Positions 1 to 47,985 of a stretch of 64,000 bases of DNA are shown here, piece by piece. Source of the stretch: Escherichia phage vB_EcoM_TH18. How positions within the stretch are numbered: position 1 is the first letter of the stretch; each line of letters begins with the position of its first letter. The notes under the pieces are model-generated. The model was not told the origin of the DNA and ran no database searches. It saw only the letters and a list, made by a program, of their open reading frames with translations. The stretch lies in sequence record ON075799. One strand, 5' to 3'. The translations under genes were made by a program, and so were the position numbers.

Positions 1-575
1 GCAAGTTTTGCAAAAGGTGTAAATCTTGTTAATTTTGATTTATTGGTTGGTGTAGGATCTTTTTCTACTGTAAATCCTTCCGCTATTAGTTCACGAGAGC
101 TTGTTAAAAATTCACTTATTCCTGCTTGTCCTGGGTCAACACTGAAAATTATGGTAACATCATCACCATCAAAATAAGCCTGTTTCTTAATGATAACATC
201 ACGTTCCCCAGCTTTTTTACAGAATCTCCCCTGCGTTTGAGTTGAATATCTACCATCATCAAAAAATTCAGGACAATAATCACCAGACAAATAGTAAAAG
301 CCATCATTGTCTTTACTTACCTTAACAGATGCTGTAAAGTCAGGATATCTGTTTCCAGATGTTCTTTCTGTACCTGCTTTATCATACGGACGAACAGATA
401 CAACACCGAGAGGTAAGCAGGGAACCTCTTTTAAATAAGATCTCTGGAAATAGTTTGCCCCTTCAGGTCTTGCGTTCCAGTTTCCATGCAATAACTGGGC
501 TTTTTCTACCTCTGGAAGACCTTCAAGGAATGCTAGATAATCTGGGTTATTCTCCAGCATGGGAGGATTATCGAA
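1..575 (-). CDS. terminase large subunit-like protein, 3' exon (partial, continues beyond window start)
   Basis: Minus-strand frame open from ~575 to position 1, translating DNPPMLENNPDYLAFLEGLPEVEKAQLLHGNWN...VTIIFSVDPGQAG; follows the putative intron 3' end; in-frame stop just upstream marks exon start. Confidence 0.5.
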
Positions 576-1570
576 TCCTTGTATTCAAGGTTGGACGCAA
601 CGCCAACCCCCGCACCACTACGTGCTGCTGCATGTCACCATGCAGAGTAGACTATATCACCACCCACACATAATGGGTGCTTCGCTTTTCGAACGCCATT
701 AGCTTGCGATCTACTCCCTTGCGGGATAGTCGTTGAACTACATTACCATTCATAGTTGTTTGAGATATAGATGTAAGTTTTTCTATCTTTTATTCTTCTA
801 ACAAGATTAAAACTAACACCCCATTTTTTAGATATCTTATTAATGCTTAGGATACCGTCTCTCAGATCTTCACATATCCCTATAACTTTGGATTCACTAA
901 TTCTGTTGGAAGAAGGAACCATCCTGAAATTAAACTCTTTAGAAATGTCTGGGTAGACTCTCCCAGCTTTGATACTACTAACCACAGTCTGCCCAATACC
1001 AAACATCTCACTGATATCCTTTACTCTAGCACCCTGCTCAAGTAATCTGCATATCTCAAGGGCAGTGTTATCATCAAGAGGCCTGTAACTGTTTACATAA
1101 GACTTCTTAAGCCCTATTTCATGTGCGTGATGTGTGCTTTCCTTTGCAGTTGTCCACTCAAGATTCCACGCTGCGTTATTAAGTTTGTTTCCATCTAAAT
1201 GGTTCACTTGAGTTTTTGTATCAGGGCTATCATTCTCGACAAAAGCAAAAGCAATAACCCTATGGACAAGAACTTGAAACTTTTTACCATCCTCACACAA
1301 CGTTAACATTGCATAGCCAGTTTTCTTATGGACATTAGGATGTAAAAATTTGTGGGAATACAAACTATAAATTCTTCCATCATACGTCGCACAATAATGG
1401 GAATACCCTAAAAATCCTAAATTTTTCATCTCAAACATTCTCCCTACTACAGTTTCGGAAAAGTAATTATAGCTGCTGATTGCCCTTATACAAAGGGTTT
1501 CCCAGCAATTAACGAAGTTATTCGACATGCATTACTGCATGAAGCCACTATTCTTTTAATGGTTGCGGAA
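576..1570 (-). mobile_element. putative group I intron carrying an HNH homing endonuclease ORF (boundaries approximate)
   Basis: Separates two coding segments of one ATPase gene; R-like (revcomp of gatagtcgtt ~725) and S-like (revcomp of agactatatc ~650) elements in correct order at the 3' end. Confidence 0.5.
743..1528 (-). CDS. HNH homing endonuclease (intron-encoded)
   Basis: 261 aa ORF with HNH motif HRVIAFAFVEN...VNHLDGNKLNN; sits inside the intervening sequence; start codon uncertain. Confidence 0.7.
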   Translation of the reverse strand: MSNNFVNCWETLCIRAISSYNYFSETVVGRMFEMKNLGFLGYSHYCATYDGRIYSLYSHKFLHPNVHKKTGYAMLTLCEDGKKFQVLVHRVIAFAFVENDSPDTKTQVNHLDGNKLNNAAWNLEWTTAKESTHHAHEIGLKKSYVNSYRPLDDNTALEICRLLEQGARVKDISEMFGIGQTVVSSIKAGRVYPDISKEFNFRMVPSSNRISESKVIGICEDLRDGILSINKISKKWGVSFNLVRRIKDRKTYIYISNNYEW

Positions 1571-1902
1571 ATGAAGGAAAATGAAAGCGGTTTAGGCTTT
1601 CTTTTCTCATCCTTGCCATCCCAATACTTTTCAATTAATTCTTGCTCTGAGTCACCCCAGATAAATTCTCCGTCACGTCTTATAAACCATCTAATCACCC
1701 CATCTCGTTCAGGTATAGGATATCCCTCATCGTCTAAATACCAAGAAATCAACTCCTTAATCTTATGATCTGGATCAGGGTTACAAGAGATAACCATCCT
1801 GCTCGGATATTTAGAGTTTGAACGTAGACGAGATATCAGATAATCTATCTGTGACCATGTGAATTGTGTTCCCTCATCAAAGCCGATGAAGGTATACTGC
1901 AA
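1486..1902 (-). CDS. terminase large subunit-like protein, central exon (Walker B region); ORF ends likely run into introns
   Basis: Translation FIGFDEGTQF (hhhhDE Walker B-like) ...IWGDSEQELIEKYWDG; no plausible own start; flanked by intron-like sequence. Confidence 0.5.
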   Translation of the reverse strand: MQYTFIGFDEGTQFTWSQIDYLISRLRSNSKYPSRMVISCNPDPDHKIKELISWYLDDEGYPIPERDGVIRWFIRRDGEFIWGDSEQELIEKYWDGKDEKRKPKPLSFSFISATIKRIVASCSNACRITSLIAGKPFV

Positions 1903-1904
1903 CT

Positions 1905-2160
1905 TATTGTCCCCTCAGTTCGCTACACTGAGGCGGTGTGCCAAGACACCCGCCACATGTTTCCATGTGGAACAGACTATATCTTCCATCCTTGGCGTGC
2001 CGTTTGGATCACCAATCGCTTGTGATTCTACTCTCCTACACTCATCGGAGATAGTCGTTACACCCAGATTTTATATTTCCATATTCTGTGGCACGGTATT
2101 TTCCCATAGGGAGTTCCACCGTTATAGGCACGAAGGGCAAGCTATTCACCCTGATGATCT
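1905..2160 (-). mobile_element. putative small group I intron, no ORF (boundaries approximate)
   Basis: ~250 nt non-coding insert between exons; same R-like (gatagtcgtt ~2052) and S-like (agactatatc ~1975) motifs as the other three intervening sequences. Confidence 0.45.
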
Positions 2161-3512
2161 AATTTGTTATTCTCATACTCCATGTGTCTCCACAACACCT
2201 TTGCCCCAGATGGGAAAATTGCTTCCAGAGCTTTCTCCCTGAACTTCGGCTTCCATTCCTTATCGAGTTGCAAATAAATACTTTTTGCTGTATCAAAAAG
2301 CCCACCTGCACCTGTCAATTGAGGTGTTGTCCTACGAAACATTATACATGCTGTCTGCGGGTCATCGACATAAGCAAGCGGCATCAATTGTAGGAGATAT
2401 GATTTTCCACTATTCCCAGTGACAACCACACAATCTTCTAGTCTGGTAACAAAGAAACCTGTTTGTGTTACAAAGCAGTATTTAAACCCATCCGTAGGTA
2501 TAAACTCTTTAAACTCAGCTTTTCTGTCTTTATTAGCCAGTGACCTTAATCCTTTTCCTCTAGCCATAATATTAACAGTATAACTGTCCTTTCCACTTCT
2601 TGTATCATGGTTTATGGTGGTATTATAACCAAGAGAAGATCCTACAAACTGAACAAAATCAGCGTTCATCTTATGGACAGTAAAATATCTACCTGTAAAG
2701 CTGTTATGTGTTTTACCGCCATATGGCTTACAAAAAGAACCATCCCAATGAAAAATCTCATCAAGTATTATCTCCAGTTGTTCATTTGAACACTGATAGT
2801 ATTTCTCTGTAAATTTTTTATCAGGATATTTAGGCCATACAATAACCTCGTACTGTTCCCCAGTGGTATATCTTTCACTGGGTTTTGATCCTCTATCTTC
2901 ATATCTTAATCCAAACTTTTTACAAAGTTCGATTAAGCGGTCATATTTACGCTTTTTAGCAAAGCGCATCTGTGTATAATTATCTTTCCCTTCTTTAACA
3001 ACTCTCCCATCAGCCATGACAGCAACCTGAAGCCGTAATTCCCCTTCTGTCATGTCTATCCCAGGACCATCATAGTTAAATGTAGTTATGAACTTACCTG
3101 TCCAACCTTTTTTAACAGAGTTGTTATGTCTTTCTGCCACTTCAGAAAAAGAAAGTGTTCTTGGCTGTGATTTATAGTCTGGTTTATAAATCACAGTATG
3201 TTCGTCAGATAGCTCTTGACAAATGCCATTACCTTCTATTCTTGTAAGTTTTTCGCAAGGGAGTTTAACAAACTCTAAAGGGGGGATAAATTTAGCCTCC
3301 CCAGTGGCTTTGTCATATTGCAGAATGTCCTGCCCTGACCATTCTGATATCTTAATCCAGCCAGATGGTGTCAACACCTCGTGGTCTTTAGACAAACACC
3401 CGGCGGCCCCACCAATTATTAGAATTTGGGCTTTACTCTCCAAAATCATTTTTTGCTTAGGACTGGCAGGTCCAAATACTTTACTCAAAAGACCTCCATA
3501 TTTTCTATTCAT
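2142..3512 (-). CDS. terminase large subunit-like protein, 5' exon, with in-frame intein
   Basis: N-terminus ...ILIIGGAAG then intein then SGKSYLLQLM: extein junction reconstitutes a GGAAGSGKS P-loop (Walker A). Confidence 0.6.
   Translation of the reverse strand: MNRKYGGLLSKVFGPASPKQKMILESKAQILIIGGAAGCLSKDHEVLTPSGWIKISEWSGQDILQYDKATGEAKFIPPLEFVKLPCEKLTRIEGNGICQELSDEHTVIYKPDYKSQPRTLSFSEVAERHNNSVKKGWTGKFITTFNYDGPGIDMTEGELRLQVAVMADGRVVKEGKDNYTQMRFAKKRKYDRLIELCKKFGLRYEDRGSKPSERYTTGEQYEVIVWPKYPDKKFTEKYYQCSNEQLEIILDEIFHWDGSFCKPYGGKTHNSFTGRYFTVHKMNADFVQFVGSSLGYNTTINHDTRSGKDSYTVNIMARGKGLRSLANKDRKAEFKEFIPTDGFKYCFVTQTGFFVTRLEDCVVVTGNSGKSYLLQLMPLAYVDDPQTACIMFRRTTPQLTGAGGLFDTAKSIYLQLDKEWKPKFREKALEAIFPSGAKVLWRHMEYENNKLDHQGE
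2412..3398 (-). mobile_element. putative intein with LAGLIDADG-type endonuclease domain (residues ~39-367)
   Basis: Begins CLSKDHEVLTP (block A-like), contains LQVAVMADGR and LEIILDEIFHWDGSF, ends ...VVVTGN before Ser+1; interrupts the P-loop. Confidence 0.6.
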
Positions 3513-3583
3513 ACCATAGAGGGTAGTTTACCACGAATAACGATAAAAATAAAGCCCTTATCATTAAATAAGGGCATTGTCAA

Positions 3584-3877
3584 CTATTTATCTGAAGTAA
3601 ATATTGTCTTTACATACTGTTGTAGCGTTCTTAATTTCATACGATCTTCAGCAGCCTTAATGTTGTTTTTCTTGATCACCTCTATAGCATCCGCATTACT
3701 AAGACCACCTGGCAATTTTTCAGGTTCTTTCGGTGGTATCATAGCTTCAGCGGGTGGTCTTGCTAAGATATCGCTTATTATGATCTCTTTTGCAACAGGA
3801 ACAACTCTCTCAGGCGGTGAAGTGCACCCTGTTAACATCAATAATAGAAAAGGAACCATGATGACACACTTTTTCAT
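3584..3877 (-). CDS. o-spanin-like outer-membrane lipoprotein
   Basis: Signal peptide with lipobox LTGC, proline-rich mature part; overlaps the upstream i-spanin-like gene by 4 nt. Confidence 0.55.
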   Translation of the reverse strand: MKKCVIMVPFLLLMLTGCTSPPERVVPVAKEIIISDILARPPAEAMIPPKEPEKLPGGLSNADAIEVIKKNNIKAAEDRMKLRTLQQYVKTIFTSDK

Positions 3878-4275
3878 TTCACCCCCAGACTATCGTTATA
3901 AATATCAACAAACTGGTTATCTAGGCAAACCTGTTTTCCTGCTTGTGTTTTGCTATAACTTTTAACCTTTTTATCAAGGTCTTCTTTCAGTTGGTTATTA
4001 ATTTCTCTCTCTTTCACCAACATGGTTGACAACTCATCGATCTTATCCTGCTGTTGTTTTTTAAAAGCGTTGTTGTGATCTCTAACTTGCTGGTTAATCC
4101 TCTCCCATTTAAGGTCAGTATCGCTGACACCTGCGTTGTAGGATGATGTTAACTGGTCATTATACCAATGCTTTATCTCCACAACACCCCAAACGAGCAT
4201 CACACAACACAAAACGACACCTATCTGTTTTATGTTCTTAGAAAAGAAAGTTAACAGCGTTTTAAACCATATCAT
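3874..4275 (-). CDS. i-spanin-like protein (N-terminal TM helix plus coiled coil)
   Basis: 133 aa; hydrophobic N-terminus (IGVVLCCVMLVWGVV) followed by charged heptad-rich region. Confidence 0.55.
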   Translation of the reverse strand: MIWFKTLLTFFSKNIKQIGVVLCCVMLVWGVVEIKHWYNDQLTSSYNAGVSDTDLKWERINQQVRDHNNAFKKQQQDKIDELSTMLVKEREINNQLKEDLDKKVKSYSKTQAGKQVCLDNQFVDIYNDSLGVK

Positions 4276-5609
4276 GATATATCACCATCACACTCAATAA
4301 TATTTTCAATCTTCAACGTTGTTTTTCTGTTTTCAGAAATACACAGACTATTAAAATTGCTAATATCGTACTGGATCTTAGATGTATCGCTTACAGAAAC
4401 CTCTAACAGAACTGCTCCAGGCTGATATATTGTAAACCCATAACTATCTCCCTCCCCGTTCTCACACAGAATTTTGTACTCTCCTCTTGCCTCCGCTTCA
4501 TCAACATAAAGTCTGAGAGTTGGAAAATTATTTGCTATATCTTCTTTGTGAAGCCCAACATGATGTTTATCTTTTGTTGGCATCATGAGATAGAAAACTT
4601 CCGCAGGACAAACTCCATATAGTTTTGTAAAATATTTCCTACCTGTTGCTTTTCTTAATCTTTGGAAAATACTGAACATATTAACTTTAGATACATCATT
4701 AAACGGCAACGGTTGCACAGGGGTAACATTTTTGTCTACCTGCTGGCAACAAGATTCTAATCTGTCTAGGAACTCAACCAAAGAATCAAGTGAAAACTGT
4801 TTTGTCTCATCAAAGATATCTGACAGTTTCATTCCGTACATCCCGCTAAGATGTGACTTTGCCGATTCCCAACTTTCTATCTGAAGGCTGGCAATAGCCA
4901 TAGCCAGTTTCATTGTCTCTTTTTTCGAAATTGTATAGCCACGAGATTTGTATTTTTCAGATCTCAAAAGTGATATAATCGGGTATTCAGTCTTATGATT
5001 TACAACTAAGACTCTTTGAGCAATATGTTTTAAGAAATTGCTATCAAATTCCCACACACCATCCTTGAAGTTAAAAGCGCCCATGTTGATTGTAAAATCA
5101 ACTTTGCTAAAGATATCTTCTGTTGTTTTGAACACATCCACAGCAACACACTGTAATACAGGATCCTGCCCAAAGTACAGCGTTACGCTCTTATCTGTCA
5201 CACCAACTCTGGTAAGATTTGGGAGATCATCTTCTTCAAGATGAAAATTTTCACATCTGGACAAAGGGTCTGTGAAACATAAATGCGTATCCTGCCCATT
5301 ATCAAGGTTATAAAAATACCTAAAAGTTCTTTTTTGATTTTCCCATCCGTTTGTCTGTGCGGTTAAATCATACTTTCCACTTAAAAGATTTTTATCCATC
5401 ATGTACGCAATGAATATCTCAAGATTTTCCCAAGATGGGAAATACAAATCAAGATCGTTGACTTTACTATTAGAGAACAAAGAGGTTATTGCCCCGCCAG
5501 CTATCTTAACATCCAGCTTCGACAATAAATCATAAACACCTTTTGGTATAAAAGAGCACAAAATGTCGTACTCTCTTTGAAAATCTTCTTTTTTGAAAAC
5601 ATGCAACAT
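4272..5609 (-). CDS. Pol-beta-superfamily nucleotidyltransferase-fold protein, function unknown
   Basis: Start refined to MLHVFKK (ATG at 5609); motif IAGGAITSLFSNSKVNDLDLYF fits the hG[GS]-x9-13-DhD nucleotidyltransferase signature; long C-terminal domain unassigned. Confidence 0.55.
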   Translation of the reverse strand: MLHVFKKEDFQREYDILCSFIPKGVYDLLSKLDVKIAGGAITSLFSNSKVNDLDLYFPSWENLEIFIAYMMDKNLLSGKYDLTAQTNGWENQKRTFRYFYNLDNGQDTHLCFTDPLSRCENFHLEEDDLPNLTRVGVTDKSVTLYFGQDPVLQCVAVDVFKTTEDIFSKVDFTINMGAFNFKDGVWEFDSNFLKHIAQRVLVVNHKTEYPIISLLRSEKYKSRGYTISKKETMKLAMAIASLQIESWESAKSHLSGMYGMKLSDIFDETKQFSLDSLVEFLDRLESCCQQVDKNVTPVQPLPFNDVSKVNMFSIFQRLRKATGRKYFTKLYGVCPAEVFYLMMPTKDKHHVGLHKEDIANNFPTLRLYVDEAEARGEYKILCENGEGDSYGFTIYQPGAVLLEVSVSDTSKIQYDISNFNSLCISENRKTTLKIENIIECDGDIS

Positions 5610-5660
5610 CTTAGCTATCCTTAAGTACAAAACAAGATGCGTAGAGACTAGCACATAAAG

Positions 5661-5682
5661 AAAAACCCCGCAAGAGGCGGGG
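5661..5682 (-). terminator. rho-independent terminator downstream of the tRNA cluster
   Basis: Hairpin ccccgc-aagag-gcgggg with A-run on plus strand (U-run on minus-strand transcript). Confidence 0.55.
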
Positions 5683-5814
5683 TTAGGCATAGGAGAGGAG
5701 ATTGATTGGATTATTATTATAGTTATTTGAGAAAAGTGGCGAAGGAACCTTTACATGTCGAGAGTGTCTTACCGTTTACTCAGCCACGACCCTCCTTAGT
5801 GTCCACTTTAATTC

Positions 5815-5893
5815 TGGTTGCGAGTATTGGAATCGAACCTGCAATCTTCAGGGTATGAACCTAACATGGTAAATCCATTTCCACCAATCTGCA
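5815..5893 (-). tRNA. degenerate tRNA-like element (anticodon-loop CAU; weak acceptor and T stems)
   Basis: Canonical T-loop GGTTCGATTCC, D stem and anticodon arm TTAGG-TTCATAC-CCTGA present, but T stem and acceptor have several mismatches. Confidence 0.3.
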
Positions 5894-5899
5894 ATAATT

Positions 5900-5975
5900 T
5901 GGTGTGACGGACAGGATTCGAACCTGTGACCACCTAGTCTTCAGCAAGGCACTCTACCAACTGAGTTACCGTCAC
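5900..5975 (-). tRNA. tRNA-Phe (anticodon GAA)
   Basis: Manual cloverleaf: acceptor GTGACGG/CCGTCAC, D arm ACTC/GAGT, anticodon loop CTGAAGA, T loop TTCGAAT, encoded CCA. Confidence 0.8.
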
Positions 5976-5980
5976 ATAAT

Positions 5981-6057
5981 TGGTGGGCGATGAGGGACTC
6001 GAACCCCCAAAATTCAGGTTCTAAGCCTGACATGTATACCAATTCCATCAATCGCCC
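5981..6057 (-). tRNA. tRNA with anticodon UAG (Leu-reading) but short variable arm
   Basis: Acceptor GGGCGAT/ATCGCCC, anticodon arm TCAGG-CTTAGAA-CCTGA, T arm GGGGG-TTCGAGT-CCCTC, CCA encoded; D stem has one mismatch. Confidence 0.55.
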
Positions 6058-6071
6058 ATCTATATTAACAG

Positions 6072-6263
6072 TTATGGTTTTCCACGATACACAGAAATAG
6101 TTTTCCCATTAGCATTGATAACATAAGCGGTCTGATCCTCAGACAAAAACACTTTTTGATCAATGCCGGAAATAGCTATAGACTTTTGATGAGCACAATA
6201 CCCAACAATTTTCCCACAAAAAATTTGTTCATCATTTGGAGAGACGACTTTAACTGTTAACAT
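6072..6263 (-). CDS. small hypothetical protein (63 aa) inside the tRNA cluster
   Basis: Start refined to MLTVKVV with RBS agagga 6 nt upstream; the longer ORF-track start would overlap tRNA-Pro. Confidence 0.45.
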   Translation of the reverse strand: MLTVKVVSPNDEQIFCGKIVGYCAHQKSIAISGIDQKVFLSEDQTAYVINANGKTISVYRGKP

Positions 6264-6305
6264 GGTATCCTCTGTACATTTCTGCTTTGATATGTTTATG
6301 TTTGT

Positions 6306-6383
6306 TGGTCTGTCCGGTTGGATTTGAACCAACGACCTGGTCATCCCAAGTGACCCGCGCTACCCAAGCTGCGCTACGGACAG
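6306..6383 (-). tRNA. tRNA-Pro (anticodon UGG)
   Basis: Perfect cloverleaf: acceptor CTGTCCG/CGGACAG, D arm GCGC/GCGC, anticodon arm GGTCA-CTTGGGA-TGACC, T loop TTCAAAT, CCA encoded. Confidence 0.85.
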
Positions 6384-6467
6384 AGAAATGTAGATTTTAA
6401 TTGTCCCAGAATCTACTAACTGGTATCGCTGGCTAGGTGATATCTGTGACTTGATTAAGTCAAGAAT

Positions 6468-6559
6468 TGGCGGTTCCTGAAGGATTCGAACCTTCGGTGG
6501 GGAGATTCATTCCCAACGGCTTAACAGGCCGTCACCATCGACCACTCGGTCAAAGAACC
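6468..6559 (-). tRNA. type II (long variable arm) tRNA with anticodon GUU; identity uncertain
   Basis: 92 nt; acceptor GGTTCTT/AGGAACC (one G-U), anticodon arm ACGGC-CTGTTAA-GCCGT, ~20 nt variable arm, T arm GAAGG-TTCGAAT-CCTTC, CCA encoded. Confidence 0.55.
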
Positions 6560-6568
6560 TGAATATTT

Positions 6569-6645
6569 TGGTGGATCTGGTTGGGGTCGAACCAACAATC
6601 TCTCGATTAAAAGTCGAGTGACTTAAACCATTTGGCTACAAATCC
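6569..6645 (-). tRNA. tRNA-Lys (anticodon UUU), weak D arm
   Basis: Acceptor GGATTTG/CAGATCC, anticodon arm CTCGA-CTTTTAA-TCGAG, T arm GTTGG-TTCGACC-CCAAC, CCA encoded; D stem poorly paired. Confidence 0.55.
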
Positions 6646-6663
6646 GTTAAATTATCTTTAAAA

Positions 6664-6691
6664 TAGCTAATTACTCGCACATAATTAGCTA
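6664..6691 (-). terminator. hairpin plus U-run (terminator-like) within tRNA cluster
   Basis: Inverted repeat tagctaatt...aattagcta followed on the minus strand by TTTTAAAGA. Confidence 0.3.
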
Positions 6692-6878
6692 TACGCAACA
6701 ACTCTCCAAGGAGAGCACACTAATGATCGATTACGATTATATGACTAAATTTAGACCATCATAAGTGTTTGGCTTACGCCAGTAAAGAGCGGACTGCTCT
6801 GGGGTATCGGTAAGATGGTTGCAGCCATCTACCGAAAAATCACACCAAGCAACTAAACAAGCTACATTAAAGATAACT

Positions 6879-6967
6879 TGGAGGAGGCTGACAGAATCGA
6901 ACTGTCACCATATCTCTACAGCGGGACTGGGTTCAAACCAGCTTGTGCACCATGCACCCCAGCCTCC
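6879..6967 (-). tRNA. tRNA-Ser (anticodon UGA), type II
   Basis: 89 nt; acceptor GGAGGCT/AGCCTCC, anticodon arm GCTGG-TTTGAAC-CCAGT, long variable arm, T arm GACAG-TTCGATT-CTGTC, CCA encoded. Confidence 0.7.
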
Positions 6968-7038
6968 AAAGATAGCCTCTGCCGAGGATATACACCCAAC
7001 AAAGGAGGCGCTCAGGTCAGAAGAAATCTGAGCCTTAA

Positions 7039-7132
7039 TGGAGGAAGATGCCAGACTTGAACTGGCACACCCATTTCTGGGTTACTATCTCCTTAGCAGG
7101 GAGATCCCTTACCAAATTAGGGTTAATCTTCC
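7039..7132 (-). tRNA. tRNA-Ser (anticodon GCU), type II
   Basis: 94 nt; acceptor GGAAGAT/ATCTTCC, 3-bp D stem, anticodon arm TCTCC-CTGCTAA-GGAGA, T arm GCCAG-TTCAAGT-CTGGC, CCA encoded. Confidence 0.75.
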
Positions 7133-7153
7133 AATACCTTAGTAATTAAAAAC

Positions 7154-7243
7154 TGGTGGAGAAGGAGAGAATCGAACTCTCAAGCCGTTTTACCAGTCAG
7201 CACATTTCCAATGTGCTTTCGTCGCCAATCGATTTGCTTCTCC
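7154..7243 (-). tRNA. tRNA-Ser (anticodon GGA), type II
   Basis: 90 nt; acceptor GGAGAAG/CTTCTCC, anticodon arm GCACA-TTGGAAA-TGTGC, long variable arm, T arm GAGAG-TTCGATT-CTCTC, CCA encoded. Confidence 0.65.
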
Positions 7244-7252
7244 GTTTTAACT

Positions 7253-7328
7253 TGGCAGGGGATGGTTGATTCGAACAACCGATCACGGGGTCAAAGCCCG
7301 TTGCATTAGGCCACTATGCTAATCCCCT
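7253..7328 (-). tRNA. tRNA-Gln (anticodon UUG)
   Basis: Perfect cloverleaf: acceptor AGGGGAT/ATCCCCT, D arm GCAT/ATGC, anticodon arm ACGGG-CTTTGAC-CCCGT, T loop TTCGAAT, CCA encoded. Confidence 0.85.
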
Positions 7329-7333
7329 TTTGC

Positions 7334-7410
7334 ACGAGAGTGAGGAATAGAACCTCTTAGTCACTGGTTTTGGAGGCCAGCCTTCACCCAGTGAAGTTAC
7401 GCTACTCTCA
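7334..7410 (-). tRNA. non-canonical tRNA-like element
   Basis: Good acceptor (TGAGAGT/ACTCTCG) and T-loop-like GGTTCTATTCC, but D and anticodon regions do not fold into standard arms; no encoded CCA. Confidence 0.3.
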
Positions 7411-7417
7411 TTAAAAA

Positions 7418-7975
7418 CTATTTTCGAAAAGGACTTATGAAAAATGCCAACATCACTCTCTCTCTTGAAAAAGCTCTGTCTTCAGGAACCACACTCTTCA
7501 GTTTCCAACCGACATAAATTCGCCAGTAAAATTGTTTTCCAAACAATCTAAAAGACGGGACAAACGCGAATACACCCCACGCATTGTCATTCCACATCAA
7601 CAAATAGCCTTGTTGGTTATCCTCCACATCAGAGCTTACATGGAGGTTTCCTTTCCACTTTGTCACAGATGTGATTTCACGTCCAAGTACGTGATAGGAG
7701 AAATTGTAGGCTTTATTTCTCCACAACCAAGCAACTCGTTGTAGGTAAACACCAAAACTTCCTATTTTACGGACTTCTTCCCATCTCTCTATGTGTCCTC
7801 TATCACCGTCTATAGGATTATCATATGTCTCCATCCACCTGAAAATATAAGGCAGATGCCCTGTCTTCTCATTATAGAACGGAACAACAAAAGGAGCCAG
7901 AATAACACAGAGAACCGACATAACTGGGTCAAGAGGTGCTAACAGGATCCACGATAAATATTTTAAGTATCTCAT
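7418..7975 (-). CDS. hypothetical protein (185 aa, hydrophobic N-terminus)
   Basis: ORF from six-frame track; start overlaps stop of upstream gene (ATGA). Confidence 0.5.
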   Translation of the reverse strand: MRYLKYLSWILLAPLDPVMSVLCVILAPFVVPFYNEKTGHLPYIFRWMETYDNPIDGDRGHIERWEEVRKIGSFGVYLQRVAWLWRNKAYNFSYHVLGREITSVTKWKGNLHVSSDVEDNQQGYLLMWNDNAWGVFAFVPSFRLFGKQFYWRIYVGWKLKSVVPEDRAFSRERVMLAFFISPFRK

Positions 7976-8202
7976 GCAGGATCAAGCCTAGATATAATGT
8001 ACTGGTTTAAATCTGAATATGGGAAGATACTTTCAAAGATAACCTGTTTAAATCTGAAGCCGCACAAACCGAAAAGTACCTTCTGACACTCACCAAAAGA
8101 GCAATCTTTACCAACTTTTATCACAACCGTATCGGCAATCTGCACACTTTCTATCTCTTTAGATTCATGATGCCGTACTATGATTACTTTAGAAACCATC
8201 AT
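7972..8202 (-). CDS. hypothetical protein (76 aa)
   Basis: ORF from six-frame track; translationally coupled to downstream gene. Confidence 0.45.
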   Translation of the reverse strand: MMVSKVIIVRHHESKEIESVQIADTVVIKVGKDCSFGECQKVLFGLCGFRFKQVIFESIFPYSDLNQYIISRLDPA

Positions 8203-8327
8203 ACTCGTCCATATTAAAGCCTTCTACTAAAGATAGTAGATGTCTAGGGTTGGACCGCAAACGCAACCCCATGGAATTTGTTACGGTCTTCAGTTGACCC
8301 AAGCGGATTTCATTGACATCTTTTAAC

Positions 8328-8402
8328 TGGAGCATCCAGAGGGTATCGAACCCTCGACTTCAGCTTGGAAGGCTGTAGTTTTCCCAATTAAACTATGGAT
8401 GC
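8328..8402 (-). tRNA. tRNA-Gly (anticodon UCC)
   Basis: Acceptor GCATCCA/TGGATGC, D arm GTTT/AAAC, anticodon arm (A)CAGC-CTTCCAA-GCTG, T arm GAGGG-TTCGATA-CCCTC, CCA encoded. Confidence 0.75.
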
Positions 8403-8407
8403 ATATT

Positions 8408-8483
8408 TGGTGGGAGTGGTAGGCTCTGCCCCTACGTCCTCTCGATTATCGGTCGAGCGATCTACTAACTGATCTACACTCCC
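8408..8483 (-). tRNA. tRNA-like cloverleaf with Ile-type anticodon GAU but non-canonical D and T loops and C at position 33
   Basis: All four stems perfectly paired, CCA encoded, but D loop AGTTAGTA lacks GG, T loop is GGCAGAG (no TTC), anticodon loop is CCGATAA. Confidence 0.5.
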
Positions 8484-8546
8484 AAACTGTACTGGCCCAA
8501 CAACCACGATTGGAGGGTATCGTCACACATCAAAGCCAGTACAGTT
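8484..8546. other. long perfect hairpin (13-bp stem, ~37-nt loop) between two tRNA genes
   Basis: aaactgtactggc (8484-8496) and gccagtacagttt (8534-8546) are exact reverse complements. Confidence 0.6.
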
Positions 8547-8551
8547 TTAGT

Positions 8552-8641
8552 TGGTGTGCCGTGATAGAGTCGAACTACCCGAGTCCCTTTCGAGACAGGA
8601 GATTTACAGTCTCCCCCGCTACCCCTACGGTCTAACGACAC
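8552..8641 (-). tRNA. tRNA-Tyr (anticodon GUA), type II
   Basis: 90 nt; acceptor GTGTCGT/ACGGCAC (one G-U), anticodon arm GGAGA-CTGTAAA-TCTCC, long variable arm, T loop TTCGACT, CCA encoded. Confidence 0.7.
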
Positions 8642-8642
8642 A

Positions 8643-8990
8643 TTAACCTTGTTTGAATTGAACAATATCCGTCGAGAACGGTTTAGCTGCCTTAATAGGT
8701 GCTTTTTCTGAGTTATCTTTTTCGAGTAACTCTTCGTTTTCCTCATCAAAGTAATCAGAAAGCATCTGCTCACCTTTCTCAATAACATAACGAGCTATAT
8801 TTTCTCTGATATTGTCTTTTGTATTCACATTCTTCATCAAATCCCTAAGAACCTGATGAGCTTCAGGAATCATTGCAATCAGATTCGTTTTTAAATCTAG
8901 GATATTTTTCTCTAACTGAATTGCATTAGATTCCTCTTTCAGAGGACGACCTTTTCCTCTTCTACGTTTTGTAAGCTGCTTAGTAGCCAT
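8643..8990 (-). CDS. hypothetical protein (116 aa, basic N-terminus)
   Basis: Start refined to MATKQLTKRRRGKG; the longer ORF-track N-terminus overlaps the tRNA cluster; sigma70-like promoter just upstream. Confidence 0.5.
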   Translation of the reverse strand: MATKQLTKRRRGKGRPLKEESNAIQLEKNILDLKTNLIAMIPEAHQVLRDLMKNVNTKDNIRENIARYVIEKGEQMLSDYFDEENEELLEKDNSEKAPIKAAKPFSTDIVQFKQG

Positions 8991-9009
8991 TTTAAAACCC
9001 CACTTAATG

Positions 9010-9039
9010 ATATTATCAAATAAAAACATATCTGTCAAG
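9010..9039 (-). promoter_or_regulatory. sigma70-like promoter (TTGACA, 18-nt spacer, TAATAT)
   Basis: Minus strand reads TTGACA...TAATAT shortly upstream of the ATG at 8990. Confidence 0.5.
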
Positions 9040-9075
9040 TGGTATTTTAACATATTTACCAAGAAATTGAAAGTT

Positions 9076-9152
9076 TGGAGCACGGTGTCGGACTTGAACC
9101 GACATATATCTGTTTTGCAGACAGATCCGTAACCAAATTCCAGCAACCGTGC
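9076..9152 (-). tRNA. tRNA-Cys (anticodon GCA)
   Basis: Acceptor GCACGGT/ACCGTGC, anticodon arm TCTGT-CTGCAAA-ACAGA, T arm GTCGG-TTCAAGT-CCGAC, CCA encoded; D stem weak. Confidence 0.65.
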
Positions 9153-9228
9153 AATAAGTACCCCAGGTAGAGAACCTATAGAGTGGGTCTTACGAGCCGC
9201 GCTGACGATTCTCAAGTTGGGGTTAATC

Positions 9229-9305
9229 TGGTCGAGGAGACAGGATTCGAACCTGTGACCTACGGCTTAGAAGGCCGCTGCTCTATCCAACTGAGCTACA
9301 CCCCG
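9229..9305 (-). tRNA. tRNA-Arg (anticodon UCU)
   Basis: D arm GCTC-AGTTGGATA-GAGC, anticodon arm GCGGC-CTTCTAA-GCCGT, T arm ACAGG-TTCGAAT-CCTGT, CCA encoded; acceptor has one mismatch. Confidence 0.7.
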
Positions 9306-9505
9306 AAAATAAGAATGCTTTATAGTGTATGGTTACTCAACCTCACTCCAACTTCCACAGTTGGTGCTCTACGAGCATGACTACGTTTGAAATCAACGTT
9401 GCGCACCGATAGCTTTCTCACGCATTGTATGCCTCATTCCCAACAAATGCTGATCAGACATTTATATCGAATAATATAAGCTAATACACTATAAAACAAA
9501 CTTGT

Positions 9506-9602
9506 GGCTGGGTGATGGAATCGAACCACCTATGTATTCAACGGCTTCCCCGTCTATTTTCAGGATTATAAATCCTCGCCCTTGCCAAAGGGCTTACCCA
9601 GC
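9506..9602 (-). tRNA. over-long (97 nt) tRNA-like element, anticodon arm ambiguous
   Basis: Perfect acceptor (GCTGGGT/ACCCAGC), D arm GCCC-TTTGGCAA-GGGC, T arm GGTGG-TTCGATT-CCATC; central region has only a 4-bp stem with loop TTTATAA and ~30 extra nt; no encoded CCA. Confidence 0.35.
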
Positions 9603-9604
9603 AT

Positions 9605-9679
9605 TGGTGCTCGCAGCAGGTTTCGAACCTGCAACCCCCTGCTTACAAGGCAGGTGCTCTACCGTTGAGCTATACGAGC
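9605..9679 (-). tRNA. tRNA-Thr (anticodon UGU)
   Basis: Acceptor GCTCGTA/TGCGAGC, D arm GCTC/GAGC, anticodon arm CCTGC-CTTGTAA-GCAGG, T arm GCAGG-TTCGAAA-CCTGC, CCA encoded. Confidence 0.85.
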
Positions 9680-10044
9680 AATAAGACATTGCTTCCGATT
9701 AACAGCCTTGAGGCTTTACAGACCATATCTTGTGAGCCATAACCTGTGCCAAGGATTTCAGATGATAAACGAAATTTTATCTTTCAAGAGTCAACTTTCA
9801 AGTTTCATCTTTTACATTTAACCATTGACCTTTATTGTATGAACTTTTACTTAGTGGAAACAACAAGGCATCTTCGTGTGCCTCGCTGCATCTATGTCCT
9901 GTATTATCCTCATACATATACGATACATGGTGGGGGATATTTAACCTCCAACCCCCAGGAGGCAAGATGATGTAAACTTCGTTAATCAAAAGCAATGTTT
10001 TAAATTTCAAAACAAAGGAACGATAATGATATTATCAGAGCCTT

Positions 10045-10692
10045 TTAGAGAGAGTGCTCAATCTCAATTTCTGTCTTAGCGTTTGACTCAGACAACGCAA
10101 AATCAACGTTAGACAAGAAATCTTCAATCTCTTCTTCAAGAGAACGAATCTTAGAAGCCAGTTCAAGAGGATCCACAACCGATGGTGTGTTCATCATTCG
10201 AATAGGAGCTTCCACAGTCTTAATCTGCTCTGCATCTGGCGCTTTATCACGTTGGATATATGGCGCTCTTGCATTTTCAAGTTTATCTTCCAGAGATTTT
10301 TCTTCTTTTGCCAGAAGAAGCTGTGCAGAAGCACGCTGTGCACAAAGTTTGTTTAACAACTCTTGTTTAAAGCAAATCGTCCGTTTGCGTTCGATTGCCT
10401 CAGCAACTGTCATAGACACATTACCAATTTTGACAATTGTCTCAGCATTAGACTTAACAATTTTTGCTTTCAGTTCATCACGCACTGCCAAGAGGTCTTG
10501 CAGACTTTGATAGTCGTTGATCGCAGATTTCTTAAAATCATCAACAGAGCCGATATAACCCGGAATCTTACAATTATTCTCAGTTCCTTTTGCAATCTTA
10601 ATACAATCAAGATTGTAGATACGCTTATTGATCTTATCTTCAATTTTAGAGATAGAAGCAAGTGCACGAGTTACGGAAATCTTAGTAGACAT
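10045..10692 (-). CDS. hypothetical protein (215 aa, charged coiled-coil-like)
   Basis: ORF from six-frame track; charged, heptad-like composition. Confidence 0.55.
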   Translation of the reverse strand: MSTKISVTRALASISKIEDKINKRIYNLDCIKIAKGTENNCKIPGYIGSVDDFKKSAINDYQSLQDLLAVRDELKAKIVKSNAETIVKIGNVSMTVAEAIERKRTICFKQELLNKLCAQRASAQLLLAKEEKSLEDKLENARAPYIQRDKAPDAEQIKTVEAPIRMMNTPSVVDPLELASKIRSLEEEIEDFLSNVDFALSESNAKTEIEIEHSL

Positions 10693-10765
10693 GCGATCTC
10701 TCCTATGTAAATCAGCTTTGATAAAGTAACTATCCAGAAAAACAAAAACTATGTCAAGAAAAATT

Positions 10766-10957
10766 TTAATCTTTTACAGCATCTTTTATAGAATCACAAA
10801 GATCTTGAACAACATCAGATGTCGGTGACAAAATCATCTCGTCGGCTGCTGCTATAGCATCTGATGCTAAATCAACAAACGGAGTTGTTACCGCAGAAGT
10901 CACTTCAACAGCCGTTATTGTTACTTCGCTTGCAATCTTAAGCAAAGATCCTATCAT
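10766..10957 (-). CDS. hypothetical small acidic protein (63 aa)
   Basis: ORF from six-frame track in an otherwise gene-free gap. Confidence 0.4.
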   Translation of the reverse strand: MIGSLLKIASEVTITAVEVTSAVTTPFVDLASDAIAAADEMILSPTSDVVQDLCDSIKDAVKD

Positions 10958-11033
10958 AATCTCAACCCTCCTGAATATCCGTGATTCCCTTTATTTAACG
11001 ACGCTGGCTCACGGTGGCACTCTCGTCAATAAA

Positions 11034-11357
11034 CTATTTTTTAGTTTTCTTACCGTTTTCTACAGAAATGCTTGTTTTCTGTTTCGCTTCTCGTTCGCGC
11101 TTTGTTTTCCCAGTGCGAATACGATATGAAGCAGAAATAACTTCACCACCAATGACACGAGACACAGATTCGTAATACATTTCAGTATTACCGTCTTCAT
11201 CTTTGCGTTTTTTCAGAACTGCTACAGTTTGCGTTTTACCACCAAGGCGCACATCGTGCGGTGCAGAATGTGTCTGCGTGGATTTTGATCCAAACTGAAA
11301 AGGTTGCTTTATCGCCTCGATAGCTGACACCTTTTTAGCAGACTGTTTCTTAGCCAT
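11034..11357 (-). CDS. hypothetical basic protein (107 aa)
   Basis: Start refined to MAKKQSAKK with strong RBS ggagga upstream; lysine/arginine-rich. Confidence 0.55.
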   Translation of the reverse strand: MAKKQSAKKVSAIEAIKQPFQFGSKSTQTHSAPHDVRLGGKTQTVAVLKKRKDEDGNTEMYYESVSRVIGGEVISASYRIRTGKTKREREAKQKTSISVENGKKTKK

Positions 11358-11408
11358 TAAGTTTTCTCCTCCGAAAACAATAAACATAGTTTATTTCGTG
11401 TGCCACAT

Positions 11409-11485
11409 TTGGTGGCCCCTGCTGGACTTGAACCAGCGACCAAGCGATTATGAGTCACCTGCTCTATCCAACTGAGCTAAGGGGC
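11409..11485 (-). tRNA. tRNA-Met (anticodon CAU; initiator/elongator/Ile2 not distinguished)
   Basis: Acceptor GGCCCCT/AGGGGCC, D arm GCTC-AGTTGGATA-GAGC, anticodon loop CTCATAA, T arm GCTGG-TTCAAGT-CCAGC, CCA encoded. Confidence 0.8.
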
Positions 11486-11818
11486 CGAATCTCTTAATAT
11501 GAGATGATATTATCCTGTATGATCTACATTGTCAAGAGATATTTTAAAATTTTATACATCCCAGTTTTCTTCTTGATAACAACCTTCCCCGAATCCAACT
11601 TCTTTTTCAAAATCAATACCTTTTTTCATACATTCCTCACATTAACAGATATTGTTTTCAAACTCAAAACGTAAAATACGAACTCTGTCAATACACTGCT
11701 GTAATCTACAAAGCAACAACTCAACTTGTTTATGCGTCTCTTCAGTATACGTTTTGGTCATCTTGCTTTTCTCCGTGATCTTTTCATTGCAGCTTCTGCA
11801 CGTCTTTGTTTACGATTT

Positions 11819-12067
11819 TTAGATGGTTGTTCTAAGGATCCTGATAACGTACTTTGTTGTGCTAATCCCTTCGATGGGGTAGAAATAATATAATCCCCCT
11901 TCTTCACCGAACGATGCAATATATTTCCAGGATTCAATTCCAAAACCAGTTGTAGAAAAAGCGACATCATCCGCTTCTTCAAGCGCATCATCATGTGTTT
12001 TATGGAAAGACTCATGTTCTACGTACTCCCCGTTATCAGACTTAAGAACCATTTTTAATTTAAACAT
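11819..12067 (-). CDS. hypothetical acidic protein (82 aa)
   Basis: ORF from six-frame track with ggtga RBS-like sequence upstream; preferred over the overlapping frame 11758..12015. Confidence 0.45.
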   Translation of the reverse strand: MFKLKMVLKSDNGEYVEHESFHKTHDDALEEADDVAFSTTGFGIESWKYIASFGEEGGLYYFYPIEGISTTKYVIRILRTTI

Positions 12068-12135
12068 AACAAATCACCACTAATTTTATTTTTATCTTGT
12101 TATTAGATCTTATCAGTGGTGTTTATTTTTGTCAA

Positions 12136-12342
12136 TTAAACTATTCCAAAAGCCTTGACACCACGCTCGTATTCTGCTACTGCAAGCTCATGAGGAGAAA
12201 GGTCACATGAGGCATCCTTGCAAAGACCGACTTCGATGTAATGTTCTTCTAGTCCATCAAGGATATCTGGCTCCCACGCTTTTTTCATGTCTGGATGGAC
12301 TGATGCACGATTTCTATCGTACTTCGCTACGAGATTTCTCAA
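12136..12342 (-). CDS. hypothetical protein (68 aa)
   Basis: ORF from six-frame track, downstream of the nadV terminator. Confidence 0.45.
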   Translation of the reverse strand: MRNLVAKYDRNRASVHPDMKKAWEPDILDGLEEHYIEVGLCKDASCDLSPHELAVAEYERGVKAFGIV

Positions 12343-12354
12343 AACATTCTCCTC

Positions 12355-12382
12355 AAAATAAAAACCCCTCCATGTGGAGGGG
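12355..12382 (-). terminator. rho-independent terminator after nadV
   Basis: Hairpin cccctcca/tggagggg preceded on the plus strand by an A-run (U-run on the minus transcript). Confidence 0.55.
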
Positions 12383-12395
12383 AATGATTATGGTG

Positions 12396-14111: not shown

Positions 14112-14174
14112 GATCTCAACCCTCCAACCTAAAAGCGTATTTTTTCACTAAAACGTATCTTTGTCAAGATGTAA

Positions 14175-14984: not shown

Positions 14985-15382
14985 GATTTATCTCCTCTAG
15001 CACGATTGACGATAATATAATTTCTTGGTTTCACGTTACCATCAGAATCCTGAAATCCTGATCTGACACGCCTGACATAACCAAAGCTCTCCATCCGAGA
15101 CAGAAATTCAGACACTTTGGTTCGTGAGTTTTCGTTCCACCCCAACAGACCACACAAGGATTGCTGTGACGGAAAGAATACCAGTTCCCCACCCAAGGGG
15201 TTCCGACTCTTGAAATACTCGTATCTCCACAACAAGCGTATCAGTCTTTGCAGATCGCTTGGTGATAACCGTTCATCAAAAACCCACTCTGTCGGCACAG
15301 CGATGTACGACCCAGCTTTCGGATTTACATGGAAACCCCCAACATTCGATTTCAAGGCAAACTCCGGTGTGTAATTCAACAC
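14981..15382 (-). CDS. hypothetical protein (133 aa)
   Basis: ORF from six-frame track; first minus-strand gene beside the AT-rich strand-switch region. Confidence 0.5.
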   Translation of the reverse strand: MLNYTPEFALKSNVGGFHVNPKAGSYIAVPTEWVFDERLSPSDLQRLIRLLWRYEYFKSRNPLGGELVFFPSQQSLCGLLGWNENSRTKVSEFLSRMESFGYVRRVRSGFQDSDGNVKPRNYIIVNRARGDKS

Positions 15383-15452
15383 CGAGAATGCTACTCATAA
15401 CACCACACAATGTCAACCCCTCCCATATGTCCCCATTTCAGGGACATTATGA

Positions 15453-46879: not shown

Positions 46880-47240
46880 TGATGAAACGAGTTTGTCAGA
46901 TAATCTCTTTCGATTAATCCTGGGTATGCTTCTTTAAGTTTTGTGGCAAATTTATAACACAGAGATTCTGCCGATGTACCGCTGCTTTCGCAGTATTTTC
47001 ACGGACTAGACTATATCACGATCTTGTGACCACTCACAAGACCCTCCACATTTCGCCATTCAAGGCTACTCTACTCGCTTCTTCACATCAGGTGAAGCTG
47101 ATGCTATGCTTTCGATAGTCGTTAGAGACAATCTCTTGCCTACGGGGTTAGCTCTGCCCCAACAGGGTTTAGCCTTTCTTACCAGCTTATTGTTTATTCA
47201 GCTATGCCCGTTTAGTGGAGTTATTCGACAACCATCACTG
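46880..47240 (-). mobile_element. putative group I intron in nrdD (no ORF; boundaries approximate)
   Basis: ~360 nt non-coding insert between nrdD segments; R-like gatagtcgtt (~47120) and S-like agactatatc (~47003) elements. Confidence 0.5.
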
Positions 47241-47753
47241 GTTGAAGGCCCAATTGTGTTTAGGCGTGCCATATAGGCTAAATGCTAAACCACTTCGCTC
47301 TTTAAAATCAGCACAAATATCCTTCATATATTTCAAGATATTCATTGCCATCTCTTTACGAACTGGTTCGCCATACAAAATTTCAACTGCTTCATAAAGA
47401 CCCACATAGCCAATACTGATTGATGCGTAGCCATTAAAGAAGAGTTTACTAATCTTTTCATCAGGTCCGAGCCGTGCAATAGCCCCCTCCATAAACATTG
47501 TGGGATTCTGGGATGCTTTTACATCCATCAATCTACCGACTCTAACCATGTGCGCTTTATACGCCATTTCCATGTGCTTTTCAAGCAATTCGGTAAACAG
47601 AGTTTTCTTAGATTTTGCTTCTGCTGCAATCATAGGTAAGTTTAGAGAGACAACACCAAGATTGAATCTACCATCATATTTCTCACCATGTTCTGTTGCA
47701 TAATAAGATAAGAAACTTCTACACATTATGTTCGAAGTGGTTCGCAAGGCCAC
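47235..47753 (-). CDS. nrdD: anaerobic ribonucleotide reductase NrdD, central exon (ORF ends extend into introns)
   Basis: In-frame segment between two intron-like inserts, assigned to nrdD by position; true exon limits likely ~47245-47725. Confidence 0.6.
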   Translation of the reverse strand: MALRTTSNIMCRSFLSYYATEHGEKYDGRFNLGVVSLNLPMIAAEAKSKKTLFTELLEKHMEMAYKAHMVRVGRLMDVKASQNPTMFMEGAIARLGPDEKISKLFFNGYASISIGYVGLYEAVEILYGEPVRKEMAMNILKYMKDICADFKERSGLAFSLYGTPKHNWAFNQ

Positions 47754-47985
47754 TCCCGCACCACTACGTGCTGCTGCATGTCACCATGCAGACCAGACCA
47801 TATCTTCATGCTTAAAGCATGTCTGCCGTTTGGGGTGTCATCAGCTTACACTCTACATCCCTACATTCATCAGGATTGGTCGTTAGGCATTTACGGTTGA
47901 TACCGATTTAGCACGGGATTCCCTCCATAGAGGATTCCCCCGTTTAGGCAGATTTTACATGAGCAGTTATAGTTTACCCATGCTT
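47726..47985 (-). mobile_element. putative group I intron in nrdD (no ORF; boundaries approximate)
   Basis: Non-coding insert with a 38-nt block (47755-47792) identical to one in the terminase intron (609-646); S-like agaccatatc and R-like ggtcgtta elements. Confidence 0.5.

Follow-up and report, generated by a model that had tools for sequence, protein, structure and literature searches.

A 38-nt repeat in a terminase intron and an nrdD intron is very likely a P9-P9.1 module that two distinct group I introns share as members of the td-like family

We find that the 38-nt block CCCGCACCACTACGTGCTGCTGCATGTCACCATGCAGA, which occurs twice in the window (the whole stretch of DNA analysed, 64,000 nt), very likely represents P9 and P9.1, a module conserved among td-like introns, in two separate members of that family, with no recent duplication of a whole intron behind it. 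The block is an RNA structural module, neither a DNA signal nor protein-coding sequence, and the module itself holds nothing outside known group I biology. One carrier, terB, interrupts the gene for the terminase large subunit; the other, nrdD_1, interrupts nrdD. From their sequences we classify both as T4-td-like (IA2-like) group I introns, previously unannotated. The phage belongs to Vequintavirinae, Avunavirus. The two copies are as follows.

Block copy 1, 609..646, minus strand: P9 at 628-645 and P9.1 at 612-625, from the exact match, the 3'-domain model, the MFE fold and family covariation.
Block copy 2, 47755..47792, minus strand: P9 at 47774-47791 and P9.1 at 47758-47771, from the exact match, the RF00028 alignment and the 3'-domain model (88.9 bits).

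In plus-strand letters the block has exactly these two copies, as the original prediction had described, and allowing up to three mismatches revealed no further copy in the window. No 38-mer match appeared in any of 100 dinucleotide-preserving shuffles. In the window, the terminase and nrdD genes are both encoded on the minus strand. The distance from the block to the 3' exon downstream of it is 32 nt in terB (omega-G at 577) and 31 nt in nrdD_1 (omega-G at 47724), within the range of about 25-35 nt given before.

Two scaffolds of a single partial, multi-scaffold assembly meet in the window, and the block copies lie on different scaffolds. Window 1-15447 corresponds to OK136180.1 64001-79447, and window position 47700 to OK136181.1 position 32253. 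The relative orientation of the copies in the window is therefore arbitrary, and both their same-strand arrangement and the 47-kb spacing hold for the window only. The complete relatives YP-6, rV5 and PD114 encode TerL and NrdD on opposite strands; in the real genome the copies therefore probably form an inverted repeat. Three deposited assemblies (18-1-2, 19-1-2, 24-2-1), which come from a single submitter series, contain these sequences. An assembly or polishing artefact might have equalised the copies in such a partial assembly, where the three records with the exact repeat share one origin, and the Av-05 genome shows that a repeated palindromic hairpin can disturb assembly. We consider this highly improbable, however, as independent genomes from other laboratories carry the block with 1-3 loop differences, and typical reads far exceed 38 nt and would be anchored by the unique flanks of each copy.

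The terminase large-subunit gene is split into three pieces, deposited as separate CDS, and nrdD is in three pieces as well. The interrupting elements are listed here; a slash marks a splice or intein junction throughout.

terB, 577..1558, minus strand: group I intron of 982 nt, from the Rfam halves, the 3'-domain model and TerL colinearity.
Homing-endonuclease ORF inside terB, 743..1429, minus strand: Pfam HNH_3 at 28 bits (cut-off 24.8), annotated in the record as 'HNH homing endonuclease'.
terA, 1903..2147, minus strand: second terminase intron, from Rfam at 34.1 bits (below threshold), the 3'-domain model at 58.7 bits ending at 1903, and a fold z of -3.8.
nrdD_1, 47724..47975, minus strand: ORF-less group I intron of 252 nt, from RF00028 at 79.8 bits (gathering score 50) and the rV5 NrdD junctions.
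nrdD_2, 46972..47263, minus strand: second nrdD intervening sequence (SLYGTP/AESLCY), from the rV5 NrdD junction.

The terB junction was determined by comparison with phages GAP31 and BIS47, whose TerL genes are uninterrupted. The 5' splice site follows ...GCAACCAU, and the predicted TerL junction is ACCAU/AUUCG (GCAACCAU/AUUCGAUAAU). The predicted ligated peptide ...SFSFISATI/FDNPPMLENN... scores 88.6% to GAP31 and 85.7% to BIS47; there is no indel at the junction, because the match of 105 aa is a single 315-nt piece. In terB, P1 is predicted to pair CCAU with GUGG (4 bp) and to place a U.G at the splice site, as read from the sequence at homology-fixed junctions; P10 pairs AUUC with GAAU, and the 3' end is ...ACAAGG. 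The HNH ORF splits the ribozyme, with P1-P6 on one side and J6/7 on the other, and terB scores in Rfam only as two sub-threshold halves (31.6 and 21.4 bits). Group I membership of terB thus rests on its other features. terB carries a predicted homing endonuclease ORF, as mobile introns do, and its ortholog in phage Av-05 is without this ORF.

The second terminase intron, terA, keeps the P9-P9.1-P9.2 architecture; its stem sequences differ, and the block is absent. Exon 1 of Av-05 reads through the terA site. When terB, terA and a putative intein are removed, TerL matches Terminase_6N in a single unbroken alignment (89.6 bits, profile positions 1-213 of 215). The intein is probable from its C...N/S boundaries and the restored P-loop; in Pfam it matched no family at 1e-3, the only match being LAGLIDADG_3 at E = 0.068.

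For nrdD, alignment to the intron-free rV5 NrdD places the junctions at ...VTSMG/CRSFL... and ...SLYGTP/(S or A)ESLCY.... The predicted NrdD junction at nrdD_1 is AUGGGU/UGUAGA (AGCAUGGGU/UGUAGAAGU). P1 is predicted to pair CAUGGGU with GCUCAUG (7 bp), again with a U.G at the splice site and read from the sequence at homology-fixed junctions; P10 pairs UGUAG with CUAUA, and the 3' end is ...AUAAUG. At the nrdD_1 position, the orthologs in YP-6 and phiWec187 have an endonuclease ORF of about 510 nt, of which the window intron has none. The Rfam alignment of nrdD_1 shows a 45-nt insertion running from the P7 5' strand to the P3 3' strand, with plausible hairpins AUCCU with AGGGAU and GUGU with ACAC in the P7.1/P7.2 region. 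The other insert, nrdD_2, contains the P7-like motifs GAUAUAGUCU and AACGACUA and is without P9.1, P9.2 and the block. It gave no Rfam match at E<=1 and only a 14-bit partial match to the 3'-domain model.

Excision at the predicted sites restores colinear NrdD and TerL. By these junctions both block copies are intronic over their entire length, which bears out their placement in non-coding inserts of the two genes rather than in exon sequence, the observation named in advance as counting against it. The block as a protein motif was rejected, since it is intronic and no coding frame matched.

On the RNA strand, the block reads U-CUGCAUG-GUGA-CAUGCAG-CA-GCAC-GUAGUG-GUGC-GG-G. It contains the P9 hairpin of 7 bp, capped by the GNRA loop GUGA, and the P9.1 hairpin of 4 bp with the hexaloop GUAGUG (GCAC-GUAGUG-GUGC). 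The last base of the block is the first G of P9.2. The two domains that contain it are the following.

terB 3' domain, 577..658, minus strand: P7 3' strand, J7/9, P9, P9.1, P9.2 (588-609) and tail.
nrdD_1 3' domain, 47724..47804, minus strand: same layout as the terB 3' domain, 83% identical.

P9.2 is GGGUUGG-CGUUGCGU-CCAACCU in terB and GAGUGG-CCUUGCGAA-CCACUU in nrdD_1, and in both introns a tail follows up to the terminal G. In terB, positions 648-649 pair with 582-583 as P9.0. The RF00028 alignment of nrdD_1 ends with P9 at 47774, on the block. The suggestion of a shared 3'-terminal intron domain is thus upheld, as P9-P9.1 followed by an analogous P9.2 and tail. An intrinsic terminator was also considered for the block and rejected, as no U-run follows P9.

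Secondary-structure prediction, one of the checks originally proposed, gave a divided answer. The single-sequence MFE fold reproduces P9, P9.1 and P9.2 for terB, as well as for terA, but in nrdD_1 P9.1 is mis-paired and the hairpin is absent. Against shuffles, the fold z-scores of the two block-bearing introns are weak (-1.3 and -1.4), that of terA being -3.8. Since folding of single sequences is weak evidence, covariation was used for the structure.

An IMG/VR scan with the block, its loop positions left free, returned 7 loci, and the P7-P9 signature occurs in at least 120 stretches there. With duplicates removed, the matches listed comprise about 120 distinct 3' domains, nearly all of one layout: GAUAUAGUCU-NN-P9(GNRA)-CAG-P9.1-CGG-P9.2(loop YUARCGA)-GAA-N-AUAA-G/exon. 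We aligned 62 family members over the helices P9.0, P9, P9.1 and P9.2; sequences with mis-parsed 3' splice sites, window nrdD_1 among them, were replaced or excluded beforehand. The four helices are 98.2% paired. Their covariation score is 0.606 versus 0.175 in shuffled alignments, none of 500 reaching 0.606, and at most 0.153 with partners slid. Of the four P9.1 pairs, three are changed on both sides within the 62 sequences, as is every one of the six P9.2 pairs. The P9.0 pair, formed by the first J7/9 base and the tail base after GAA, is GC in 24, AU in 23, CG in 14 and UA in 1; in a wider parse it is Watson-Crick in 107 of 111 introns. Across more than 100 introns among the matches listed, the P9 stem hardly varies. 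Five of its seven pairs show no variation in the alignment, which is uninformative because the search pattern fixed those pairs. These data support P9, P9.1 and P9.2, with the enclosing 2-bp P9.0, as conserved pairings.

Because Rfam at its gathering threshold caught only one of the four introns, a dedicated 3'-domain covariance model was built from the 62-sequence alignment. In the window it finds exactly three full members, nrdD_1 (88.9 bits), terB (85.2 bits) and terA (58.7 bits). The 3' ends that it assigns coincide with the splice sites derived independently.

The covariation also bears on whether the block is kept as a DNA-level site, recognised by a nuclease or DNA-binding protein or serving as a recombination hotspot. 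Nucleotide-level conservation in several genes fits such a site, as do the inversion junctions of the Av-05 record, which fall in P9. However, the compensatory changes in P9, P9.1 and P9.2 follow the rules of RNA pairing, which a DNA site would not need; in the PD114 terB ortholog, both sides of pairs are changed in all three helices. Together with the absence of any protein or motif evidence found for it, this makes a DNA site very unlikely.

As an RNA module, the block can be assigned a place in the intron. P9 and P9.1 are the first two of three hairpins in the 3'-terminal peripheral domain of both introns, and the 2-bp P9.0 between J7/9 and the tail closes P9, P9.1 and P9.2. The roles of P9, P9.0 and L9 are general knowledge on group I introns. 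By the established mechanism of such introns, P9.0 and P10 would place the terminal G in the P7 guanosine site for exon ligation and align the 3' exon in readiness for the second transesterification. L9, with its GNRA loop, may dock on P5 and help to pack the two core domains, with P9.1 and P9.2 as likely peripheral stabilisers.

Outside the 3' end, the two introns have little in common. Pairwise comparison, the other check proposed, gives 83% identity only over the last ~82 nt; the close match does not extend further, with 51% over J6/7-P8 and 32% over P1-P6. Each intron has its own P1/P10 guide pairing and a co-adapted P9.0, A-U in terB and G-C in nrdD_1. The flanks of the block are gene-specific too: J7/9 is AC versus GR, and the P9.2 stems and tails differ. 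Orthologs of terB with the HNH ORF are found in rV5-like phages (86-88% over the 3' half), that of rV5 being annotated as part of a 3-part join, and a distant one in Justusliebigvirus PD114 (73%). Orthologs of nrdD_1 are found in YP-6, phiWec187 and PD114. The orthologs span other genera and subfamilies: Vequintavirus has one at each of the two sites, and Justusliebigvirus has one at the nrdD site too.

The original prediction took the repeat as a sign that an intron had recently been duplicated, or had homed, from one gene into an unrelated one. In favour of such a whole-intron duplication or ectopic homing, an exact 38-nt repeat lies in two introns of one genome, and whole-intron duplicates do exist in the family: one co-resident pair (L106) is 91% identical upstream and 95% in the 3' domain. 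Such an origin is nonetheless most improbable for terB and nrdD_1, given the 32%/51%/83% mosaic, the orthologs holding both sites and the gene-specific flanks with their co-adapted P9.0 pair. On this comparative evidence the two introns appear as old residents of their respective sites and not as recent copies of one another. Nor does a run of this length by itself mark a recent transfer, as such runs occur in many members with unrelated 3' contexts. Over P7-P9-P9.1, exact runs of at least 38 nt occur in 20 of 7108 pairs with unrelated 3' contexts among the matches listed, and the terB/nrdD_1 pair is one of these 20. A recent event, if any, may be short-patch homogenisation of loop positions rather than transfer of an intron.

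We attribute the 38-nt identity to two properties of the module. It is the most conserved stretch of the family, and in P9.1, which falls into a few discrete types across the family, the two introns have one clade-specific type in common (GCAC-loop-GUGC). The same P9-P9.1 type is found in introns of other genes, one in a family B DNA polymerase gene (L006 type, Pfam PF00136) and a further one, L008. Compared with the orthologs in YP-6, rV5, phiWec187 and PD114, the block shows 1-3 base differences, only in loops. Among orthologs, L9 is GUGA, GUAA, GGGA or GCGA, and L9.1 is GUAGUG, GUAAUG or GUAAAG. At all four loop positions that vary in relatives, the two copies of the window agree, which may reflect short-patch gene conversion between co-resident introns in the Avunavirus lineage. 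This proposal has somewhat less than an even chance of being right; for the window pair its evidence is four nucleotides in very few Avunavirus genomes.

Evidence for conversion comes from the distribution of loop and stem types. Position 4 of L9.1 is G in Avunavirus introns alone (terB and nrdD_1 of the window, terB and terA' of Av-05), and the other members of the GCAC type among the matches listed have A. L9.1 is GUAGCG in Av-05 terB and GUAGUG in terA', the Av-05 intron at GFDEG/TQF. The 5' half of terA' resembles the rV5 intron at the same site; its 3' half differs and has the Avunavirus-type P9.1. For terB, the P9.1 type is CAC in Vequintavirinae and UUC in Justusliebigvirus; for nrdD_1 it is CAC in both. 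Among 14 contig groups of at least two members each, three have P9.1-P9.2 pairs at least 80% identical, versus 0.33 expected by label permutation (P = 0.0034). These co-resident pairs include a module-only case (L126, 53-65% upstream versus 82-87% in the 3' domain) besides the whole-intron duplicate described above. The pattern suggests that introns in one genome exchange or homogenise their 3' modules.

The conversion step, and this step alone, competes with an account by constraint and common descent, in which the loop agreement is due to chance or parallel selection; parallel loop changes could arise from a lineage-specific selective pressure. All orthologs, and introns in other genes as well, have the same block stems, variation is confined to the four loop positions, and exact runs of at least 38 nt are shared even by unrelated introns of different environments. 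Moreover, the same two introns differ in YP-6 at three of the four loop positions, and homogenisation is therefore not general. On the other hand, constraint does not readily fit the G that, at L9.1 position 4, no listed member of the type has other than four Avunavirus introns, which occupy three or four sites, the change of P9.1 type between phages at one site (terA', terB), or the co-residence enrichment. We regard constraint with common descent as a reasonable possibility, though one that falls short of being probable.

A broader proposal is that P9-P9.1(-P9.2) forms an exchangeable cassette, which short-patch gene conversion would homogenise or swap among group I introns of one phage genome, and that the palindromic P9 also acts as a breakpoint of rearrangement or assembly. 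In the Av-05 reference, terminase exon 2 appears to be inverted between two P9 hairpins, over about 550 bp. We put this proposal forward tentatively and think it rather doubtful as a whole.

With two introns per gene and a probable terminase intein, correct gene models can be given for the fragmented CDS. A long exact intron repeat by itself does not signify recent transposition, because the family keeps a near-invariant 3' module. If module exchange is real, the P9 hairpins should be flagged as a source of assembly errors, and these introns would provide a natural-population record of a process known mainly from T4 genetics.

Comparison with known systems begins with close relatives. TerL of rV5 is split in three, one segment carrying a homing endonuclease (PMC3606486). 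The rV5 terminase intron resembles terB in its site, its HNH ORF and a block with 2-3 loop differences. In contrast, the second rV5 terminase intron, at GFDEG/TQF, has a different P9.1 and is inserted 30 nt downstream of where terA sits in the window, and rV5 nrdD is without introns, unlike that of the window. In CB7, also of Vequintavirinae, RT-PCR demonstrated that a TerL intron with an HNH gene, not necessarily at the terB site, is spliced (PMC7344957).

The T4 td intron shares the layout GAUAUAGUCU - J7/9 - P9 - P9.1 - P9.2 (loop UUAACGA) - UGAACAUAAUG/exon and scores 80.8 bits on the 3'-domain model. Over the 19 nt UCUGCAUGGUGACAUGCAG it agrees exactly with the first half of the block, and P9 is identical. 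However, its P9.1 is GGA-UAUAA-UCC, versus GCAC-GUAGUG-GUGC in terB and nrdD_1. Furthermore, td (IA2) interrupts the thymidylate synthase gene and encodes the GIY-YIG enzyme I-TevI, whereas terB has an HNH ORF. The T4-type nrdD (sunY) intron, which fits this layout too, interrupts the same host gene family as nrdD_1, with a core about 76% identical over about 190 nt, the P7-P9 signature and the P9.0 pair. It differs in its site (...AFQAYE/ in phage JK45 versus ...VTSMG/CRSFL...), in the I-TevII ORF in the P9.1 region, and in P9.1.

Bryk and Belfort (Nature, 1990) reportedly described recombination between homologous elements of T4 introns, or 'domain shuffling', which gave chimeric introns. 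Those were laboratory recombinants, whereas our evidence is comparative sequence over a short tract. In both cases conserved blocks would serve as recombination substrates, and the mosaic in the window is the pattern expected from such shuffling. Module exchange, if true, would be the natural counterpart of the laboratory process in T4.

The gene for the terminase large subunit (TerL) carries two td-like group I introns in the window, referred to as terA and terB. We notice that the insertion site of the former is not shared by all relatives.

Window 1903-2147, minus strand: terA, second group I intron of TerL, without an ORF, inserted at HQG/LQYTF.

In phages Av-05 and rV5, a TerL intron occupies GFDEG/TQF instead, 30 nt downstream of the terA site. 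At least three TerL intron sites are therefore in use across the subfamily.

The Av-05 RefSeq record (NC_025830.1 117500-120938 and 1-2600) shows an inverted segment of approximately 550 bp that comprises exon 2 of the terminase gene together with the 5' portion of terB; it is bounded by the P9 hairpins of two terminase introns. The annotation places one terminase fragment on the strand opposite to the remaining fragments. Neither junction is precise (CTGCATGTCACCA/GCAG and CTGCATGGT/CATGCAG, spanning the ends of the record). Because a genuine inversion would destroy TerL, the arrangement most likely reflects an assembly error at this palindromic hairpin, which occurs more than once.

The introns also vary in ORF content. 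In YP-6 and phiWec187, the orthologs of nrdD_1, an insert of nrdD, contain an endonuclease ORF of approximately 510 nt (L002 30478-30987; L005 46994-47503), located with the initial ~84 nt of the ribozyme on its 5' side and the final ~183 nt on its 3' side, whereas nrdD_1 lacks an ORF in the window and in PD114. The pattern is reversed for terB, whose HNH ORF is present in the window and absent from Av-05.

The nrdD gene is interrupted a second time.

Window 46972-47263, minus strand: nrdD_2, second intervening sequence of nrdD, inserted at SLYGTP/AESLCY.

It contains P7-like motifs and, in its 5' part, GUCGAAUAACU, which is common to terB; P9.1 and P9.2 are absent, and at E<=1 Rfam gave no match. 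The insert is probably a group I intron in divergent or reduced form.

Among the matches listed, the P9.1 hairpin UUC-AUAAGA-GAA, loop included, is identical in about 45 of ~120 loci. Since this identity extends across introns with unrelated 3' exons, it hints that L9.1, the loop of P9.1, may make a sequence-specific contact.

Two or three td-like introns lie within 1-2 kb of one another in several phage contigs from the environment (L126 2507-4130; L106 11838-12721; L058 7016-8692). Both introns of L106 are near-identical over their full length and look like a whole-intron duplicate. In L126, near-identity is limited to P9.1-P9.2, with compensatory changes in P9.

TerL contains a further insert.

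Window 2412-3398, minus strand: putative intein of ~329 aa, splitting the TerL Walker A motif (GGAAG/CLSKDHEV...VVVTGN/SGKS).

Its removal restores GGAAGSGKS and an unbroken Terminase_6N match. Because its sole Pfam match is faint (LAGLIDADG_3, E = 0.068), the insert is either a divergent intein or no intein.

Two scaffolds from a partial assembly meet in the window: OK136180.1 runs up to position 15447, and OK136181.1 begins at 15448. As they are joined there, spacing and relative strands across this junction do not reflect the real genome; TerL and NrdD lie on opposite strands in complete relatives.

Many unannotated 'Campylobacter phage' records (MG0656xx, host C. jejuni) match E. coli rV5-like and phi92-like loci, and these matches equal those of Escherichia phages; their label looks doubtful.

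Thirteen tRNA genes (Rfam) cluster at window 5903-11486 on the minus strand. As in rV5-like phages, the cluster is downstream of the region that holds the terminase and spanin genes.
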